The notes: generated from the letters alone by a model not told the origin. Positions 24,846 to 33,305 are shown, numbered from the stretch's first letter. The stretch: DNA of 64,000 nucleotides from Gemmatimonadota bacterium (GCA_036679645.1 JAZDCY010000098.1:1-64000); one strand, 5' to 3'. Made by a program: numbers and translations.

Positions 24846-25727
24846 GTGACCGCTCGCCGTCCTCCAATCGAGCTGTTCGACACCACGTTCCAGAATCCTA
24901 TCCTTCTCGCCGCCGGCACCGCCGGTTTCGGGCGCGAACTCCAAGGTGTGGTGGCGTTGGATCGATTGGGCGGCGTTATCACCAAGTCGGTTAGCGCGGA
25001 GCCTCGCGTAGGTCATCCGGCTCCACGCGTGGCGGAGTTTGCTGGCGGCATGATGAATTCAGTCGGTCTCGCGAACCCGGGTGTTCGCGCCGTGCAGGAG
25101 GTCGAGCTCCCATGGCTGGCGGCACACGCCGGCGGGGCTCGGGTCATAGTGAGCGTGGTGGGTGCAACAGTGGCCGAGTATGTCGCAGTCGTGACCGAGC
25201 TGGAGGGAGAGGAGATCGTCACGGCGTTCGAGCTGAATCTCTCGTGCCCTAACAGCGAGCGCGGTGGCGAGCACTTTGGGGCGGATGATCGGGTGCTCGA
25301 GGGTCTCGTTGCCCAGTGCCGGCAGGCCAGTACTAGGCCTATCATCGCCAAGCTGGCGCCAACGCTCCCCGATGTGGCGCGGACGGCCAGTATCGCTGCT
25401 GGCGCGGGGGCCGATGCAATCGCGGTGGTGAACACTTTCCCCGGATTTCTCTTCTCGGCCGACTCGGGAACGACCGATCGGTTACCGCTCCTGGGTGCGG
25501 GCCAGGGTGGAGTGAGCGGCCCGGCGCTCCTGGCCGTAGGAATCCAGGCGACCCGCCGCGTGCGAGAGGCGACCGAACTGCCGGTGATCGGGGTCGGTGG
25601 CATTCGGCGGCCGGACGACGTGCGGCAGTACCTGGATGCGGGGGCAGCTCTCGTGGCGGTGGGTACGGCGGCGCTGGCGGATCCTCGTATCCCCGAGCGA
25701 CTCGCTGAGGCGTGGATGCGTGGCTGA
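24846..25727 (+). CDS. pyrD: Dihydroorotate dehydrogenase (class 1) catalytic subunit
   Basis: NSVGLANPG, ELNLSCPN, KLAP, GGVSGPA and IGVGGI motifs. Confidence 0.93.
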   Translation: MTARRPPIELFDTTFQNPILLAAGTAGFGRELQGVVALDRLGGVITKSVSAEPRVGHPAPRVAEFAGGMMNSVGLANPGVRAVQEVELPWLAAHAGGARVIVSVVGATVAEYVAVVTELEGEEIVTAFELNLSCPNSERGGEHFGADDRVLEGLVAQCRQASTRPIIAKLAPTLPDVARTASIAAGAGADAIAVVNTFPGFLFSADSGTTDRLPLLGAGQGGVSGPALLAVGIQATRRVREATELPVIGVGGIRRPDDVRQYLDAGAALVAVGTAALADPRIPERLAEAWMRG

Positions 25728-26383
25728 GGTGATCGTAGCGCTCGACCAGCCGACCGAGGCGGAAGCACTGGCCCTGGTGGATGAGTTGGACGGGCCGCGC
25801 TGGGTGAAGGTGGGTGCCACCCTCTTCGCCTCCGCGGGTCCGTCGGTGGTGACCGCGCTGCGCGCCCGGGAAATCGAGGTGTTCCTGGATCTCAAGTGGC
25901 ACGATATTCCGCATCAGGTGGAGGGGGCCGTATGCGCGGCGGCCAATCTCGGCGTCGCGCTGGCGACGGTCCATGCCTTGGGCGGGCCGTCGATGCTCGA
26001 GGTGGCAGCACGAGCAGCGGCGACCACCGGTATCGACGTGGTGGCCGTCACGGTCCTGACCTCGCACACGGCGGACGAGTTTGGACGGGTGATCGGTCGG
26101 CCGGACGTGTCTGGGCTGCAGCGAGACGTGGAACGGCTAACCGTGCTCGCTAGGGACGCCCACCTCGCCGGTGTGGTGGCCTCTGCCGATGAGGCAGCGG
26201 CAGCCCGGCAGTTGCTTGGGCCCGGAGGCATCATTGTAGTCCCGGGCATTCGTCTCGCGGAGGATGAGGCGGACGACCAGCGGAGAACGGCCAGTCCGGC
26301 TCGGGCCCTGGCGGCGGCGGTCGATCACGCGAGCCAAGAGCCCGCGAGCGGTGTATCAGCAGGTAATGGAGGTTGTCACGTGA
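25720..26383 (+). pseudogene. pyrF: Orotidine-5'-phosphate decarboxylase with a frameshifting deletion near the 3' end
   Basis: IVALD, DLKWHDIPHQ, VTVLTS, VPGIR and DDQRR, then a shift near 26317 to RSITRAKSPRAVYQQVMEVVT* (TGA 26381-26383). Confidence 0.8.
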
Positions 26384-26811
26384 TACGTGGAGTTCATGCG
26401 TCAGGCCTGATCGCTGGGCTGGTCCTCGTCGCTGCCGCGGGCCGAGTGGGCGCCCAGACACCGCTCGATCAGGTGGTGGAACGGGCGCGGGGCGCCTGGC
26501 TGGCCCATGCCGCACGCGCATTGGTGGAGCACAGCGATACCGTCCGGTTGCGGATCCCTGGGGTCGCAATCTCGGCGGCGGTCCGGCCAGGGCAGGCGGC
26601 GCGCCTGCTAGAGCGCTATTTCGAATCGACCGAGGAAGCGGGCTTCGAGTTGCGTGGTATCAGGCACGTCGGTGCCGACCACGCGTACGCAGAGTTGCTC
26701 CGCCGGTTCGTGGTCCAGGGCACGGACGACGAGCGGGAGGAAACGGTCTTCTTTGGGTTCCGCGTGATCGGCGGTGAATGGCGTCTGCGCGAGGTGCGTG
26801 TTACGCCGTAA
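26380..26811 (+). CDS. Hypothetical exported protein (143 aa)
   Basis: GTG overlaps the shifted-frame pyrF stop (GTGA); SD GGAGG; signal-peptide-like N-terminus. Appears fused to pyrF in the ORF track. Confidence 0.7.
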   Translation: MIRGVHASGLIAGLVLVAAAGRVGAQTPLDQVVERARGAWLAHAARALVEHSDTVRLRIPGVAISAAVRPGQAARLLERYFESTEEAGFELRGIRHVGADHAYAELLRRFVVQGTDDEREETVFFGFRVIGGEWRLREVRVTP

Positions 26812-26879
26812 CGGTAATGGCCCAGTTTGAATTGTGACAAAGTTGCGGCCAGGCTGGCCACCACACTAGGTTCAGATTC

Positions 26880-27089
26880 ATGGCCGGAAAAGAACTCACC
26901 CTCGATCAATGGGAGACCATTGTCCGCGATCTGACCGCGATCACGGAACGAATTGATAGGGCCAAGGACGGTCTTGATCGGCATAAGGCAGGGCAACGCG
27001 CGGTCTGGGACGAGCTTGACCTTGCCGAGGCTCGCCTTCAGGGTTTGTCGATGTTCCTCGGACTGCTCGTTGATCGTGCCGAAGTTTAA
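26880..27089 (+). CDS. Hypothetical helical protein (69 aa), IS passenger
   Basis: ATG start, amphipathic helical pattern, overlaps the next ORF. Confidence 0.6.
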   Translation: MAGKELTLDQWETIVRDLTAITERIDRAKDGLDRHKAGQRAVWDELDLAEARLQGLSMFLGLLVDRAEV

Positions 27090-27348
27090 GGACCCCGACG
27101 ACGCGAAGCTCCGCGAGGACACCGCCGAGACGGCCTCTCGGACGCTTCAGGAAGCGATAGGCGCACGGCCCAAGACCGTGGTGCCGCCATCGGAGCGCAC
27201 TGACGCGGAGAAGGACGCGCAGGCAGTCGAGCGGGGCCGGAAAGGTGGGGAGAAGGGCGGGAAGGCGCGGGCCGAAGGGATGACCGAAGACCAGAAAGCT
27301 GAGGTCGCCCGGCTCGCCGCGACGGCTCGCTGGCGAAAGACTGACTAA
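27076..27348 (+). CDS. Small protein with a KGG-like basic motif, IS-associated
   Basis: AVERGRKGGEKGGKARAEGMTEDQKAEVARLAATARW; GTG start at 27076. Confidence 0.75.
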   Translation: MPKFKDPDDAKLREDTAETASRTLQEAIGARPKTVVPPSERTDAEKDAQAVERGRKGGEKGGKARAEGMTEDQKAEVARLAATARWRKTD

Positions 27349-27359
27349 CTCTCCGACAA

Positions 27360-27839
27360 CTAGGCCGCCTCCGCGTCACTCTCCCCATCCAACTCTACGA
27401 CATCGCGAGTGAAATCCAGCACCAACTGAATTGGTGGAGTCTCTGCGTGTAGCTCGTTGAAGAACCGCACATCGTTGCTAAGCTGGCGGCAGTCGTAGAC
27501 AATGGAGTTTCGGCGCTGAGCCACAGAGATTCGCATGAACTCTGGTGATGTCGTGCGGATGTCGTCCCAGAACGTACCCTGCTCACCATCACGCCTCCTG
27601 GTCCTCGCGGGTACCTTCGCCCGAACGCGGTGCCCATGAGCGTCTGTCAGGTGTTCATCGCGCATGGAGTCGGCGATGAAGCTGCCACAGACACGAAGCT
27701 TGTCCTCACGACCGATCTCCCACATCCCACGGCCTAGGACCCACTCGGCAATCTCCGTTGCCTTCGCGGGCCAAGCACCACCAGCAAGTCGATACTCTCG
27801 AACAATACGCTGGCCCTGCTTCATGTAATGCGATGACAT
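27360..27839 (-). CDS. Hypothetical protein (159 aa), third gene of the higBA operon
   Basis: ATG 21 nt after the higA stop with an AGGA SD; globular composition. Confidence 0.8.
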   Translation of the reverse strand: MSSHYMKQGQRIVREYRLAGGAWPAKATEIAEWVLGRGMWEIGREDKLRVCGSFIADSMRDEHLTDAHGHRVRAKVPARTRRRDGEQGTFWDDIRTTSPEFMRISVAQRRNSIVYDCRQLSNDVRFFNELHAETPPIQLVLDFTRDVVELDGESDAEAA

Positions 27840-27860
27840 CGGACGATTCCTATTCTTGGG

Positions 27861-28985
27861 TTACCGAAGACCGATCTCAGGTGTGCTGCCAAAACCATCT
27901 ACCAATGCTGTTGAGGCGACAACGTGCCTGATCTTCGCAAGGTGACGCACGTACCTATTCCATTGATCGAATCGCTTGCGAAGCTGCCCTGCCACGAGCC
28001 CGGAGTGTCGGTCGATGCTATGCGCGAACCGGCGAATGTTATCATCGGTGAACAGCGGCCCCTTACGAGCCACAAAATCATCCAACAGCGCCTGGGGAAC
28101 GCAGAACTCGGCCGCTGCTCGGTTGGCCTTCCGTTCCTGCTCAGACACGTCATCCCCGGCTCGATCCACGTCGCTGTCGATCATGACTGCGTCTTTCCCG
28201 TCACCATTCAAGACATGCTCGATCTCATGCCGTAGGACGAACCAGAAGTTGTCGATCCGATCCTCCTTGAGCGACATGCCAATAACCGGCTTCTTCGGCT
28301 CGGGCCAGAAACAGACACCGTCCACGCGAAGCCCTGGCAACTTCTCCACTACGACGAATCTCACGCCCGCCTCTGCAAGAATTCGTGGAACCTGGTGGGC
28401 GTCATCCGGCGACCGAAGAAGCTCACCAAGTCTGTCGAGGGCCGCCTCCAGTTTGTGATTAGAGTAGGGAGCCACCGTAAGGGTCTGTGCCAGTTGCTTG
28501 ACTCTCAGGAGCCATGCTTCCTGCGTTGTCGTCGTTTCCGCATCGTAGGATGTCTGCTTCGCTGCGTAGGCCAGCTTTGGCCGTTGGCTCAATTCGGGAA
28601 CGCCGAGAAACTTGAGCACGTCACTTTCAAGCACATCGGTGTTTTTTGACGCCGTAATCCACCCCCGAATCGACATCTCTCGAACGGGACACCGCTCCCG
28701 AAGCCGCGCCCTGCGTGAAATACGCTTCGGTGCGGCTTCGGTGTTGGTCAAGCGGTAGGCGGCCTCTAGGTTGAGCCACAACTCGGCACCCGTGCCCAAC
28801 GCTGCCGCCAGCTCCTTGGCGATCTCGGGGGTAATAGCACGCTTCCCCTTCACAATCTGGCTGACCGCAGAAGCAGGTCGGCCGATAATGTCTGCGAACT
28901 CTGCCTGGCTCCAGCCCCGTGCGTCTAACTCGTCGCTCAGGTACTCACCAGGAGGGAATGTCTCTGCTGGGATGCGCGTATTCAT
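27861..28985 (-). CDS. HigA-type XRE HTH antitoxin fused to an ImmA/IrrE-type metallopeptidase
   Basis: N-terminal FPPGEYLSDELDARGWSQAEFA...KRAITPEIA...WLNLE; C-terminal RIDNFWFVLRHEIEH (HEXXH) and ERKANRAA. Confidence 0.88.
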   Translation of the reverse strand: MNTRIPAETFPPGEYLSDELDARGWSQAEFADIIGRPASAVSQIVKGKRAITPEIAKELAAALGTGAELWLNLEAAYRLTNTEAAPKRISRRARLRERCPVREMSIRGWITASKNTDVLESDVLKFLGVPELSQRPKLAYAAKQTSYDAETTTTQEAWLLRVKQLAQTLTVAPYSNHKLEAALDRLGELLRSPDDAHQVPRILAEAGVRFVVVEKLPGLRVDGVCFWPEPKKPVIGMSLKEDRIDNFWFVLRHEIEHVLNGDGKDAVMIDSDVDRAGDDVSEQERKANRAAAEFCVPQALLDDFVARKGPLFTDDNIRRFAHSIDRHSGLVAGQLRKRFDQWNRYVRHLAKIRHVVASTALVDGFGSTPEIGLR

Positions 28986-29001
28986 CGGTACACCACCCTC
29001 G

Positions 29002-29298
29002 TCAGTGGTAGTCGACAATCTCTATCACTCCAATTCGTTTCTTGGGCGCCTCGCCGCGAATCTCCAAAATCAGGCGCCATTGGTCGTTCAGTTTCATCGA
29101 GTGCTGGTCGGCGCGATCTCTTTCGAGCTTTTTGAAGTTGAGACCGCGCATGGCGTACAGATCGCGTTCGTCCACGGCAGCGCGAATGAACCCAATCGCC
29201 TTCCGGAACCCCTTCACAATGGCTGGCGCTAACCCGGCCGTGAATCCGGGGTCTGTTTCCAGCCGATCAAGGTCAGGATCGTCATACTCGATTTCCAT
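29002..29298 (-). CDS. higB: HigB/RelE-superfamily toxin (plasmid-maintenance killer type)
   Basis: LNFKKL..DR..QHSMKLNDQWRLI...IVDYH; toxin-first order. Confidence 0.9.
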   Translation of the reverse strand: MEIEYDDPDLDRLETDPGFTAGLAPAIVKGFRKAIGFIRAAVDERDLYAMRGLNFKKLERDRADQHSMKLNDQWRLILEIRGEAPKKRIGVIEIVDYH

Positions 29299-29406
29299 GC
29301 CCTAGTACATTAAGCCTTGAGCGCAGTTACCGCAATAGCGAAATTATGAAATTCGGTAATTCGCTGCCTGACCTTGCTTGAGCATTTGACTAGGTTGCCT
29401 GTGACA

Positions 29407-30252
29407 ATGAATAAGCTCCCCGTTGCAAGGCAGGCGGCCATTCTCCGGGCCCTCACGGAAGGCAACTCCAGCCGGGCGACCGCCCGGCTGGTCGGGATCT
29501 CCAAGACGACGGTTCTCAAGCTCCTGGTCGAGGTGGGGGAGTTCTGTGAGTTTTACCAGGACAAAGTCCTGCGGAACCTGCCGTGCACGCGGATCGAGGC
29601 CGGCGAGATTTGGGCCTTCGTCGGGGCCAAGCAGAAGCGCGCCACCCGGAAGGGCGACGGGGACATTTGGACATTCACGGCGATCTGTGCCGACACCAAG
29701 CTCATGGTCTCGTGGTCGGTCGGGTATCGGACTCACGCGTATGCCCACGCCTTCATCGAGGATGTGGCCTCGCGACTAACCAACAGAGTCCAGTTCACCA
29801 CGGACGGCCACCACATGTACCTGTCGGCGGTCGAAGAAGCCTTCGGCTACGGCGGCGTGGACTACGCGCAACTGGTGAAGATTTACAAGTCAGCGCCTGG
29901 TGTCGGATACAGCCCCGGCGAGTGCATCGGGACTCAGAAGGAACGGATCATGGGGCGGCCCGATCCCGAGAACGTGTCCACCAGTTACGTGGAGCGGTCA
30001 AACCTCAGCATCCGAATGGGGATGCGGCGGTTCACCCGGTTGACGAACGCCTTCAGCAAGAAGGTGGAGAACCACGCGCACGCCGTGGCCCTCTACTTCA
30101 TGCATTACAACTTCTGCCGCCCGCATCAGACGCTGACGAAGAAGGCCAACGGAGTGAAGGTCACGCCCGCAATGGCGAACGGGTTGACGGACCGGGTGTG
30201 GACGATGGAAGACGTTTTGGACCGCATGAATCCAGCTCGATTGTTACAATGA
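29407..30252 (+). CDS. IS1-family DDE transposase (single ORF, N-terminal HTH)
   Basis: EGNSSRATARLVGISKTTV HTH, (G)EIWAFV, TTDG, STSYVERSNLSIR, RRFTRLTNAFSKK, YNFCRPH and TPAMA motifs; stop codon lies in the right inverted repeat. Confidence 0.93.
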   Translation: MNKLPVARQAAILRALTEGNSSRATARLVGISKTTVLKLLVEVGEFCEFYQDKVLRNLPCTRIEAGEIWAFVGAKQKRATRKGDGDIWTFTAICADTKLMVSWSVGYRTHAYAHAFIEDVASRLTNRVQFTTDGHHMYLSAVEEAFGYGGVDYAQLVKIYKSAPGVGYSPGECIGTQKERIMGRPDPENVSTSYVERSNLSIRMGMRRFTRLTNAFSKKVENHAHAVALYFMHYNFCRPHQTLTKKANGVKVTPAMANGLTDRVWTMEDVLDRMNPARLLQ

Positions 30253-30283
30253 ACATGGGCCACTACCCGCCGTAACCCCTCAC

Positions 30284-30312
30284 TTGCGGTACATTTAGGC
30301 CCTCTCTATATT
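30284..30312 (+). promoter_or_regulatory. Putative sigma70 promoter of the rpmJ-rplQ operon
   Basis: TTGCGG-N17-TATATT upstream of an AAGGAG SD and rpmJ. Confidence 0.6.
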
Positions 30313-30353
30313 TACCGTTCTGGCCGCGATTTCTTGATACAAGGAGTGCGTTC

Positions 30354-30470
30354 TTGAAAGTTCGCTCGAGCGTTCGCCCCATGTGCGAGCACTGCAAAGT
30401 GGTCCGTCGCCGTGGTGTCACGCTCATCACCTGCAAGCGCAATCCCAAGCACAAGCAACGGCAGGGATAA
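30354..30470 (+). CDS. rpmJ: 50S ribosomal protein L36
   Basis: TTG start; [38 protein letters not shown]; absent from the ORF track. Confidence 0.97.
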
Positions 30471-30474
30471 AACC

Positions 30475-30855
30475 ATGGCGCGCATTGCAGGTGTCGATCT
30501 TCCGAGAGAGAAACGTGTCGAGATTGCCCTCACGTACATCTTTGGTGTGGGGCGGACGACGTCGCTGCGTATCCTCGACGAAACGGCCATCTCGGGCGAC
30601 ACGCGGGTCCGGGATCTGTCCGATGCCGAGGTAGCGCGGCTACGGCAGGCCATCGAGCGCGGGGTCAAGGTTGAGGGCGCGCTGCGCACAGAGGTCGCCA
30701 TGAACATCAAGCGGCTCATGGACATTGGGAGCTATCGGGGCATGCGGCACCGACGCGGCCTGCCGGTGCACGGACAACGGACGCACACCAACGCGCGCAC
30801 CAAGAAGGGGCCGCGCCGTGCAATTGCCGGGAGAAAGAAAGCGGTGAAGAAATAG
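30475..30855 (+). CDS. rpsM: 30S ribosomal protein S13
   Basis: [10 protein letters not shown]...[13 protein letters not shown]. Confidence 0.98.
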
Positions 30856-31236
30856 ATGGCGAGCACAGGCGCAAAGCGAAAAAAAGTCGTCGAATCGGAA
30901 GGGGTCGCGCACATCACTGCGACCTTCAACAATACGCTCATTACGATCACAGACCTGCGCGGGAACACCGTTGCCTGGGGTTCCGCCGGGAAATCCGGGT
31001 TCAAGGGATCCAAGAAGTCAACGTCCTTTGCCGCCACGGTGGCGGCCGAAAACTGTGGACGTGAGGCGTCTAACCTCGGTGTGAAGAAGGTGCACGTGCG
31101 CGTGCAGGGTCCCGGTTCCGGACGTGAGTCGGCCGTTCAGGCGCTCGCTTCTGCCGGTCTGCAGATTCTGTCGATTCGCGACGTGACGCCGATTCCGCAC
31201 AACGGGTGTCGGCCACCCAAGAAACGGCGGGTCTGA
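30856..31236 (+). CDS. rpsK: 30S ribosomal protein S11
   Basis: [14 protein letters not shown] and [14 protein letters not shown] motifs. Confidence 0.98.
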
Positions 31237-31238
31237 TC

Positions 31239-31874
31239 ATGGGGCGTTACACGGGACCTGCCTGCAGGCTGTGTCGCCGGGAGACCACCAAGCTCTTTCT
31301 GAAGGGGACCCGGTGCATTACCGACAAGTGTGCTATCGAGCGGCGTGGGTACGCGCCCGGGCAGCACGGCCAGTCAACGGGCCGTCGGCGTAAGACGTCC
31401 GAGTACGCACGCCAGTTGCGGGAGAAGCAAAAAGTCAAACGAATCTACGGGCTCTCGGAGCGGCAGTTCCGGATCATGTTTCGTAAGGTCCGCAATCAGC
31501 CAGGTGTCACTGGCGCCAACCTGATGATCGCCCTCGAGAGCCGGCTCGATAACCTCGTCTACCGCATGGGGTTTGCTCCCAGCCGCAGGGCGGCTCGGCA
31601 GCTCGTGCTGCATCGCCACATTCGCGTGAACGGGCAAACGGTGGATATCCCGTCGTACGCCCTCAAGCCGCGCGACGAGGTGCAGGTGCGGGAAGGGACA
31701 CGCGATTCCGCGATGGTGCGGGCGGCACTCGAGAACGCGCAACGTGGGGCCCCGATTGCGTGGCTCACCATAGATCCCGAAAAGGCGTCCGGGAAGCTGG
31801 CTGAAGTACCAACACGCGATGCGATTCCTGTCGCTGCACAGGAGCAACTGATCGTCGAGCTCTACTCGAAGTAG
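31239..31874 (+). CDS. rpsD: 30S ribosomal protein S4
   Basis: MGRYTGP, QLREKQK, LESRLDN and IVELYSK motifs. Confidence 0.98.
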   Translation: MGRYTGPACRLCRRETTKLFLKGTRCITDKCAIERRGYAPGQHGQSTGRRRKTSEYARQLREKQKVKRIYGLSERQFRIMFRKVRNQPGVTGANLMIALESRLDNLVYRMGFAPSRRAARQLVLHRHIRVNGQTVDIPSYALKPRDEVQVREGTRDSAMVRAALENAQRGAPIAWLTIDPEKASGKLAEVPTRDAIPVAAQEQLIVELYSK

Positions 31875-31876
31875 CC

Positions 31877-32941
31877 ATGAATATCGATCTTACTGGTCTC
31901 GTCCGTGCCTCCGTGGTCGAAATGACCAAGCGCGAGGAAGATCCTTTTGCCGCAGAGTTCCGACTTCAGCCCTTGGAGCGGGGGTACGGGTACACCCTCG
32001 GGAACGCGTTACGCCGCATGCTGCTGGCGTCGTTGCGTGGTACCGCCGTCTGGGGGTTCCGGTTGGAGGGTGTGGTGCATGAGCACCAGACGGTGCCGGG
32101 GGTCGTCGAAGATATCCACCAGATCATCCGGCGGCTCAAACAGCTGACGCTGGTCCTTGCGGACGACGTGGACGAGGCGGTGCTCAACATCAATGCCGAA
32201 AAGGCGGGCCCTGTCTACGGCCGGGATATCCAGCCGCACGGCTCGGTCGATATCGTCAATCCCGATCACCTCCTGTTCACGCTGCAGGAGGACCGCGAGA
32301 TCACCGGCGAGCTTTATGTGAACAAGGGCCGCGGGTACGTGGAGGCATCTCAGCATCCCGTCGATCGCTCGCTGCCGGTGGATCTGGTGCGGATCGACTC
32401 GATCTACAATCCCGTCCGGCGCGCCAACTTCACCGTAGCCGAGACGCGCGTCGGTCAGCGCACCGATTTCGATCGTCTGACGATCTCGGTGGAGACGAAC
32501 GGAACGATCTCGCCAGAAGATGCCGTAGCATACGGGGCCGCACTGCTCCAAGAGCATTTCCGGGCGTTCCTGGATTTCGGCAAGGTCCCCACGGTGGCCG
32601 ACGTGCCCGCCGAGGGCGAGACCGATGGCGCGCAAATGCGGGATCTGCTCTCCAAGCCAATCGACGACTGCGGGCTCTCGGTCCGATCGATAAACTCGCT
32701 CAAGAACTCGAGCATCAGCACCCTGGGAGATCTGGTCAAGTACACGGAAGATGATCTCCTCAAGGTGAAGAATGTTGGAGAGAAGGCGCTGTCCGAGATC
32801 TCGGAGCTGCTACGCCGCGAAAACCTGAACTTCGGGATGTCGTTTGAAGATCGGGGCGATGATTTCGTCGTGACGAGTGGGGGCCATCCGCCGGCAGATA
32901 TGGTGGCGGCGCCGGACATGGTAGCGGCGGCGGAGGAGTAG
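31877..32941 (+). CDS. rpoA: RNA polymerase alpha subunit
   Basis: PLERGYGYTLGNALRR, RVGQRTDFD and LSVRSINSL motifs. Confidence 0.98.
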   Translation: MNIDLTGLVRASVVEMTKREEDPFAAEFRLQPLERGYGYTLGNALRRMLLASLRGTAVWGFRLEGVVHEHQTVPGVVEDIHQIIRRLKQLTLVLADDVDEAVLNINAEKAGPVYGRDIQPHGSVDIVNPDHLLFTLQEDREITGELYVNKGRGYVEASQHPVDRSLPVDLVRIDSIYNPVRRANFTVAETRVGQRTDFDRLTISVETNGTISPEDAVAYGAALLQEHFRAFLDFGKVPTVADVPAEGETDGAQMRDLLSKPIDDCGLSVRSINSLKNSSISTLGDLVKYTEDDLLKVKNVGEKALSEISELLRRENLNFGMSFEDRGDDFVVTSGGHPPADMVAAPDMVAAAEE

Positions 32942-32948
32942 CGAGGCC

Positions 32949-33305
32949 ATGCGGCATCGCGTCAAGGGGCGCCAGTTATCTCGGACCGCGAGTCACCGGC
33001 GTGCCATGCTCGGCAACATGGCCACCGATCTCTTTCGCCACGAAGGGATCGTGACGACCCAGGCCAAGGCCAAGGAACTCCGTCCCTATGCCGAGAAACT
33101 CATCACGCTCGCGCGGCGCGGAGATCTTCACGCCCGCCGCCAGGTCGAACGCAAGATCCGCGATCGTACGGTCGCCGGCCGGCTCTTCAAGGAGATTGGT
33201 CCGCGATTCGCGGGGCGACCGGGCGGGTACACACGTATCGTCAAGTTGGGGCACCGGTCCGGAGACGGCGCCGAAATGGCGCGCATCGAACTGCTAGAGG
33301 AGTGA
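32949..33305 (+). CDS. rplQ: 50S ribosomal protein L17
   Basis: MRHR...TTQAKAKE...RPGGYTRI. Confidence 0.98.
   Translation: MRHRVKGRQLSRTASHRRAMLGNMATDLFRHEGIVTTQAKAKELRPYAEKLITLARRGDLHARRQVERKIRDRTVAGRLFKEIGPRFAGRPGGYTRIVKLGHRSGDGAEMARIELLEE

Follow-up and report, generated by a model that had tools for sequence, protein, structure and literature searches.

What does a toxin–antitoxin operon do when its antitoxin carries a protease and a third gene, matching no annotated family, follows directly behind it? This question is raised by three genes within a 64,000-nucleotide stretch of DNA (the window) from a Gemmatimonadota bacterium. The original prediction for this locus described a HigB toxin, a HigA–ImmA/IrrE protease fusion and a 159-aa protein, and suggested that the protease releases the toxin in response to a signal. 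The genes, here called A, B and C, lie on the minus strand in the order A, B, C, with gaps of 16 nt (A–B) and 21 nt (B–C). B (GAGGGTGGTG) and C (AGGA) each have an SD-like purine-rich stretch ahead of them, exactly as first described; such a stretch was also looked for before A and none was found. The features of the locus are as follows.

26804..26812, no strand: left 9-bp target-site duplication, the same as 30268-30276, found once at the empty site in genome G070
26813..26835, plus strand: left terminal inverted repeat of an IS1-family element, 11 of its first 12 nt agreeing with the right end
26880..27089, plus strand: 69-aa passenger ORF of no assigned family
27079..27348, plus strand: basic ORF of 89 aa at the end of the IS, of a type annotated as 'histone H1' (phrog_2384, 1.2e-4)
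27360..27839, minus strand: gene C, 159 aa, new family, with an Ala-Ala C-terminus at 27363-27368
27861..28985, minus strand: gene B, 374 aa from its ATG, HigA/Xre HTH, linker and ImmA/IrrE (M78) Zn-peptidase
29002..29298, minus strand: gene A, 98 aa, HigB/GraT-type RelE-family mRNase homologue with an intact C-terminal DYH
29299..29406, no strand: AT-rich intergenic region between the divergent starts of higB and the transposase, with presumed promoters/operator
29407..30252, plus strand: IS1-family DDE transposase in a single ORF (PF03400, 3.7e-8; NF033558, 1.3e-15, below cut-off)
30246..30267, minus strand: right terminal inverted repeat
30268..30276, no strand: right 9-bp target-site duplication, upstream of rpmJ-rpsM-rpsK-rpsD-rpoA-rplQ

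The trio are passengers of a complete 3,455-bp element (26813-30267) with imperfect terminal inverted repeats, flanked by the perfect 9-bp target duplication CGCCGTAAC. In the same-genus genome G070 the sequences on either side of the element join directly, sharing 9 bp, which marks an empty site. The DDE transposase, terminal repeats, 9-bp duplication and empty site in a relative place the element in the IS1 family, and support the earlier suggestion that the module is spread by an IS; we take the carrier to be an ISMhu11-type IS1-family transposon with passenger genes. It is single-copy in this genome and differs from its surroundings in composition, with a GC content of 59% (genome, 64%) and GC3 values for A, B and C of 0.66-0.67, compared with 0.77-0.78 for rpoA and carB. 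The transposase diverges from higB, and the small basic end ORF converges on C from the opposite end. Among loci with enough flanking sequence, the end ORF of IS1-borne copies has homologues that likewise converge on C (31/61 metagenome loci), and a divergent IS1 transposase shares the short intergenic region at 17/36 metagenome and 12/65 GTDB loci. The full IS1 layout, with transposase and end ORF, also occurs on two plasmids. Most GTDB loci have the module with no adjacent transposase, and it is also found in temperate phages and plasmids that lack the IS.

Several further observations concern the element and the window. One Acidobacteriota MAG has two copies of the same IS1-borne module on separate contigs (L018 and L019), a sign of recent transposition. 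Near the module at L022, L049 and L063 lies a common transposase-like ORF of another type, presumably IS1595-like, which suggests a second IS family carrying the module. The 69-aa ORF has no family above noise in Pfam, NCBIfam, PADLOC or PHROGs and no homologue at the other loci. The intergenic region 29299..29406 has no match to a sigma70 consensus, and no conserved operator or promoter motif was found upstream of 128 higB genes. The insertion lies just past the stop codon of the preceding gene and directly upstream of the ribosomal operon rpmJ-rpsM-rpsK-rpsD-rpoA-rplQ (window 30268-33305), which transposase read-through could affect. One public contig covers the whole window and has no letter differences in the module; it is probably from the source sample and is therefore not independent confirmation. 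A pyrF-like gene (window 25597-26811) is apparently fused in frame to the next ORF. At position 26315 the public contig of run X1 carries 23 extra letters, so the window may hold an assembly deletion there.

The product of gene A scores 25.6 bits against PF05015, under the cut-off of 27, and matches phrog_3066 (5e-10) and the GraT structure 6F8S_B (1.8e-8). As in HigBA and GraTA, it is a RelE-fold toxin homologue with C-terminal Tyr-His residues, encoded upstream of the antitoxin, and its DYH is kept in 115/128 loci. HigB is degenerate in Achromobacter phage CF418P1 and its near-copies (L104, L162 and L163), ending in TVH rather than DYH, and may there act only as the binding partner of B. In these phages the module has integrase-side genes on one flank and lysis genes on the other. 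The genome that carries the window has another, distant higB-like gene (G000:C28:24295-24483, 36% identity over 67 aa). At L194:1516-3015, beside an IS1 transposase, HigB and the HTH-peptidase are read in one open frame upstream of C, which is either an A–B fusion or a lost stop codon.

Gene B matches HTH_3, and both TIGR02607 (HigA) and Peptidase_M78 score above their cut-offs. The HTH occupies about residues 8-85 and is followed by a helical linker and the M78 peptidase. The zinc-peptidase domain predicted within this 374-aa antitoxin is present, its HEIEH intact at residues 253-257 (28215-28229) with E284 as third ligand. H253, E254, H257 and E284 are 99-100% conserved among 90 C-linked B proteins, and the conservation of zinc ligands and catalytic glutamate argues for an active peptidase. 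The structure model (pLDDT 91) consists of the HTH, helical linker, peptidase and a short helical tail of ~75 mostly helical residues. Foldseek, one of the comparisons proposed at the outset, was informative for this protein: the B model finds HigA structures first and then IrrE and CapP. Its HTH superposes on 4MCT with an rmsd of about 1 A over 75 residues, and the peptidase part matches 3DTE, 8SLN and 7T5T (IrrE/CapP) at E values of 3e-3 to 1e-2. A C-terminal TDGxG motif marks the C-linked clade of B and is missing from 25/27 unlinked B proteins.

What B lacks is of particular relevance for the signal. No GAF domain was found by Pfam or in the structure model, and no cysteine-switch Cys is conserved in the C-linked proteins. 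In CapP and IrrE, the GAF domain is described as one wall of a groove, with ssDNA bound between peptidase and GAF (bioRxiv 10.64898/2026.05.16.725639). The DNA-damage or ssDNA trigger that had been suggested for this module thus cannot be carried over from CapP/IrrE, and ssDNA activation cannot be assumed.

Distant relatives of B are found in other settings. At L112:514-3595 and L113:300-3586, an Xre-ImmA gene with no C is divergent from Bub-like operons (multiubiquitin, ThiF, DUF6527); its partner is a RelE-type toxin gene in L112 and a hypothetical gene in L113, where macro and DUF4433 genes also adjoin. Both of these Bub-adjacent homologues are on plasmids. From such arrangements, B-type fusions may be general regulators of defence operons.

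As had been predicted, the 159-aa product of gene C has no assignable motif: searches of Pfam, NCBIfam, PADLOC and PHROGs gave it no family at E<=1. It is nevertheless a real gene family, as 139 matches among 170 candidates and 1,399 representatives at 50% clustering (E<=1e-3) establish. The structure model is confident (pLDDT 92.7, pTM 0.75): after three helices comes a beta-wing, then a helix of 32 residues and one final helix. The first part of the protein (residues 1-97) is basic, with a pI of 9.7, and the rest (98-159) is acidic (4.4). Conserved residues, many of them polar, include R60, D66, R73, W91, D93, R109, R110, C117, D123, N128, D146 and E149, with R70 and H76 also conserved in the basic N-domain. 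The three helices and beta-wing resemble a winged HTH, and the weak Foldseek matches are the winged-helix proteins PadR and Fur (E>=0.6); with the full-length model, all winged-helix matches in Foldseek and VIA are non-significant. For C, then, Foldseek gave no PDB match at E<=1e-3 with the full-length model. Other searches gave similar results: the best BFVD match is the unnamed A0A220NS53 (9.9e-3, TM 0.43), a wide VIA search reached Z 5.1 with all matches on the long helix (Z 4.2 at best on re-alignment), and a PDB sequence search gave 0 matches. ESM Atlas returned unnamed clusters apart from DUF7225 (0.77-0.80), which is a lead only, and DUF6164 weakly matches 30/103 C members (best 1.6e-4). 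Neither Foldseek nor VIA, with the full-length model, revealed a recognisable catalytic or toxin fold. No paper describing gene C was found, and lists of candidate defence genes in supplements could contain it. Members of the family are present in cultured Bradyrhizobium, Mesorhizobium, Paraburkholderia and Acidipila strains, which makes C experimentally testable.

A further feature of C is its Ala-Ala terminus. This is found in 31/80 GTDB homologues (the best 80 of 167) and in 28/102 non-redundant homologues (<70% identity), compared with 0-10 at the next nine offsets. It occurs in 0/101 B and 0/75 A partners and in 1.6% of the long ORFs of this genome. The terminus also depends on tail length, being present in 28/83 C proteins with <=19 residues after the last conserved motif and in 0/14 with longer tails. 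Terminal Ala-Ala is reported as the core of ClpXP degrons, necessary but not sufficient (PMC10862746). From its sequence, the tail is likely to be such a degron and, with clpX present in the genome, C is predicted to be short-lived.

Whether the three genes form a genuine module depends on their linkage, which had been named beforehand as the point on which the proposal could fail. The neighbourhoods of C homologues bear out the linkage. In the GTDB set, which leans to the core clade as the best 80 of 167 confirmed C matches, 80/80 loci have B immediately upstream of C, and higB precedes B in 70/73 of those with >=1.6 kb upstream; three loci missed by the ORF-based count have higB by tblastn. 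Searches with queries from two more divergent C subfamilies gave B upstream of C at every metagenome locus that had DNA on that side (74/74; 80 of 229 matches listed) and in 17/17 phage loci, the other two of the 19 found being at contig edges. Another scan of phages gave 3/4, for a phage total of 20/21. The only C seen with no B in the 6 kb upstream is on a viral contig near a terminase-like gene (L095:5998-6552). Tree labels of the module span about ten phyla.

The reverse search, with B against 401 genomes of the phylum, matched 51, and 30 of 51 loci were listed. Among the loci listed, ten other B proteins have 43-58% identity, and 8 of them are accompanied by C (one split, one truncated); none of the 19 at 28-35% is. 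C is tied to one clade of B. It is missing in L121 and L122, split in L118 and truncated in L119 and L105; four of these loci (L105, L118, L119 and L121) keep intact A and B, and L122 has B alone. That C needs B and B tolerates the loss of C fits a toxin (C) with its controller (B), and the same asymmetry is also predicted by a sensor role for C.

The genes surrounding the module provide a modest defence context. Among 130 nearest flanking ORFs, picked mechanically, 15 match PADLOC at 1e-20 (3/60 upstream, 12/70 downstream), compared with 0/35 ORFs in a control consisting of one housekeeping window; 115 have no defence match, and some of the matches are generic (kinase, helicase). No fourth conserved gene was found near the module, the commonest neighbours being methyltransferases (6 loci). 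A large protein family that neighbours it in 5 loci probably represents type III restriction subunits, judging by sequence only.

The most informative feature of the distribution is the loss of higB. It is missing in 15/143 loci with a non-redundant, full-length B and C downstream. On the B tree, built by a quick method with no bootstrap, the presence of higB changes seven times, with four of the changes forced by well-supported branches. HEXXH is intact in 15/15 of the higB-less B proteins. In these proteins, F10 falls from 97% to 0/15, and A7, E8, E19, T55 and N72 also decay. E8, F10, E19 and N72 fall within one residue of R7, I9, E18 and N72 of GraA, as placed from alignment end points, and these four are among the toxin-contact residues of GraA reported in PMC6393540. 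Their decay in the absence of higB indicates that A would bind the HTH of B as in an ordinary HigBA pair. Covariation between A and B has its top pair at D11-R4 (Z 7.4), above five shuffles (5.6-6.2). The retention of B and C with an intact HEXXH implies that they have a function independent of HigB. The invariant core is therefore B+C rather than A+B, with HigB as an add-on, and the release of toxin by the protease, as originally proposed, cannot be the whole story.

Taken together, the sequence evidence makes it likely that the module is an anti-phage suicide switch in which C would be a new kind of effector. The version that we tentatively prefer, and hold at somewhat less than an even chance, has C as a short-lived effector held down by B, which would be both a repressor-protease switch and the antitoxin of HigB. 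B would be a self-cutting repressor-antitoxin with two outputs, the HigB RNase and C. Its HigA domain would bind HigB as in GraTA/HigBA, as homology and residue decay suggest, and B would, like its family, repress the operon. C would be kept low by B and by predicted ClpXP degradation through the Ala-Ala tail. A signal would then turn on the putative Zn-peptidase activity, cutting either the HTH part of B or the degron of C; C would accumulate and HigB, where present, would be freed. Growth arrest would abort phage replication, by analogy with PD-lambda-2 and RosmerTA.

This reading is the simplest because C needs B, B can do without C, HigB is an optional component and C has a likely degron. 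It also draws on the order of HTH-peptidase then effector, which matches that of RosmerTA, on carriage by IS1 elements, plasmids and temperate phages, and on the flanking PADLOC matches. Against it count the modest extent of that defence context (15/130), the orphan C at L095 and the lack of a recognisable toxin fold in C. Most C proteins do not end in Ala-Ala (the share that does is about one quarter to two fifths), and the motif is not sufficient for degradation by itself. B–C covariation, an underpowered comparison, has a maximum Z of 5.6 against 5.5-6.1 for shuffled pairings, and A–C covariation is also not above shuffles. Furthermore, toxicity in PD-lambda-2 is the reverse of the first step, as there B is toxic and A rescues. 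A bolder form of the same idea, which we regard as doubtful, would have B clip or override the ClpXP degron of C upon infection, so that C would represent a new-fold effector family and one hub would run two toxins, spread across phyla by IS1. If true, a single antitoxin-protease would control two unrelated toxins through a switch dispersed by IS1 transposons.

Instead of being the effector, C could be a sensor or activator that replaces the GAF domain, a refinement of the original proposal that we consider unlikely though still worth weighing. Its basic N-domain would detect phage nucleic acid or protein and C would bind B, turning on the peptidase, which would destroy the HigA domain and free HigB as the killer; the degron would limit accidental firing. 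The missing GAF wall of the ssDNA groove would be explained, and the pI of 9.7, the conserved R60, R70, R73, H76, W91 and D93, and the weak winged-helix matches (PadR and Fur, E>=0.6) all suit a nucleic-acid-binding part. The retention of DYH by most HigB proteins and the tolerated loss of C are also expected of a sensor, and the TDGxG tail of C-linked B proteins is a possible docking site. The same evidence on higB loss is difficult for this role, as B+C in at least four to seven lineages would be a switch with no output unless B itself is toxic. The degenerate HigB of the Achromobacter phages and a B–C covariation no higher than that of shuffled pairings also count against it.

It is less probable still that the module is a selfish addiction, maintenance or stress-regulatory cassette of its mobile element with no anti-phage role, acting through HigBA-type post-segregational killing or by control of the divergent transposase. 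The short intergenic region shared with the IS1 transposase (17/36 metagenome and 12/65 GTDB loci) and the reported control of ICE mobilisation by ImmA/ImmR would favour such a role. However, addiction brings little to an IS, which is rarely lost once integrated; the transposase is absent from most GTDB loci; prophage copies sit in accessory positions; and the nearest homologue with experimental data, PD-lambda-2, protects against phage. Finally, that C is a labile antitoxin or inhibitor of the B peptidase, cleared by ClpXP upon host shut-off to unleash B and HigB, is very improbable. In its favour, labile antitoxins typically bear an Ala-Ala degron, toxicity is known for PD-lambda-2B, and PD-lambda-2C is similar to a P4 antitoxin. 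But L105, L118, L119 and L121 keep A and B intact although C is missing or broken, and L122 has B alone, which shows that C is dispensable for viability.

This clade has a wider significance. It is a natural experiment in which higB has gone several times over and B has stayed, together with C and its predicted degron. It bears on the substrate of the protease and on the identity of the killing protein, both in PD-lambda-2, where the mechanism is unexplained, and for RosmerTA-like ImmA proteases. For C itself, a large family of 1,399 clusters (50% identity), the model is confident, and neither an annotation nor a fold match was found. PADLOC would detect only gene B, so the loci have probably been missed as systems.

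Different known systems share parts of this arrangement. IS1-family passenger transposons have the same single-ORF IS1 transposase, short inverted repeats, 9-bp duplication and small basic end ORF, and differ in that the cargo here is the three-gene module. The M78 peptidase with HEXXH...E and an Xre repressor are shared with CapH+CapP, IrrE-DdrO and ImmA-ImmR, whereas B is fused, co-oriented with its cargo, and has no GAF domain and no conserved switch Cys. CapH-CapP fusions are known beside defence operons (bioRxiv 2022.04.27.489752), and Bub operons are reported often to carry CapH+CapP (bioRxiv 2024.11.21.623953). HigBA/GraTA (4MCT, 6F8S; PMC6393540) has the toxin-first order, a GraT-like toxin with DYH and the HigA-fold HTH, whose toxin-binding surface is evident in B from TIGR02607, the 4MCT match and the residue decay in higB-less loci. 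Its contact residues are conserved in B only when higB is present, and the antitoxin here is about 290 residues longer, with a Zn-peptidase and an obligate third gene.

RosmerTA (RmrA-RmrT) is described as pairing an HTH and ImmA protease protein with toxins of various kinds, many of them unannotated (PMC10440598), and its layout of an HTH-ImmA protease followed by the next gene recurs in the higB-less B+C loci. RmrA models match B only weakly (best 1.9e-8, with the best stretch in the HTH), no RmrT model matches any of 103 C proteins, and HigB usually precedes B here. PD-lambda-2, as described by Vassallo et al. (2022; PMC9519451), consists of a HigB-like gene, an Xre-HTH with ImmA/IrrE peptidase and a third gene that is needed for defence but not for neutralisation; B is toxic on overexpression, A rescues, and the system protects against phage lambda. 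The order is the same, and PADLOC, another of the proposed checks, recognises B as PD-Lambda-2_B (PDLC03982 over 6-355, 2.5e-45, 153 bits). It does not recognise A or C: A has no match at E<=1 to any PADLOC model, including PD-Lambda-2_A, and PDLC03981 (PD-Lambda-2_A) has no match in this genome, where a control search was equally silent. PD-lambda-2 A is PF09907 and A here is PF05015/GraT-like, with only the RelE superfamily role in common. PD-lambda-2 C is P4 beta-like (PF14350, a 374-position model), unrelated to the 159-aa C; homology of C to P4 beta or PD-lambda-2C was considered and rejected, as 0/103 C proteins match PD-Lambda-2_C and hhalign to P4 beta gives a probability of 0.3%, and PF14350 is not among the matches listed for C members (25 of 36 families). 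The present clade also differs in losing higB repeatedly and riding on IS1 elements.

The locus is thus like PD-lambda-2 in layout and a non-member by two of three component tests. It had been put forward as an undescribed system; its architecture is that of PD-lambda-2, and C and the HigB subfamily are new. Also new are the invariant B+C core with repeated higB loss, the Ala-Ala tail of C and a B with no GAF domain. By analogy with these systems, the module would function in defence. It is a real, widespread and mobile module of the PD-lambda-2/RosmerTA kind, in which a known A–B core is joined to an uncharacterised third protein family.
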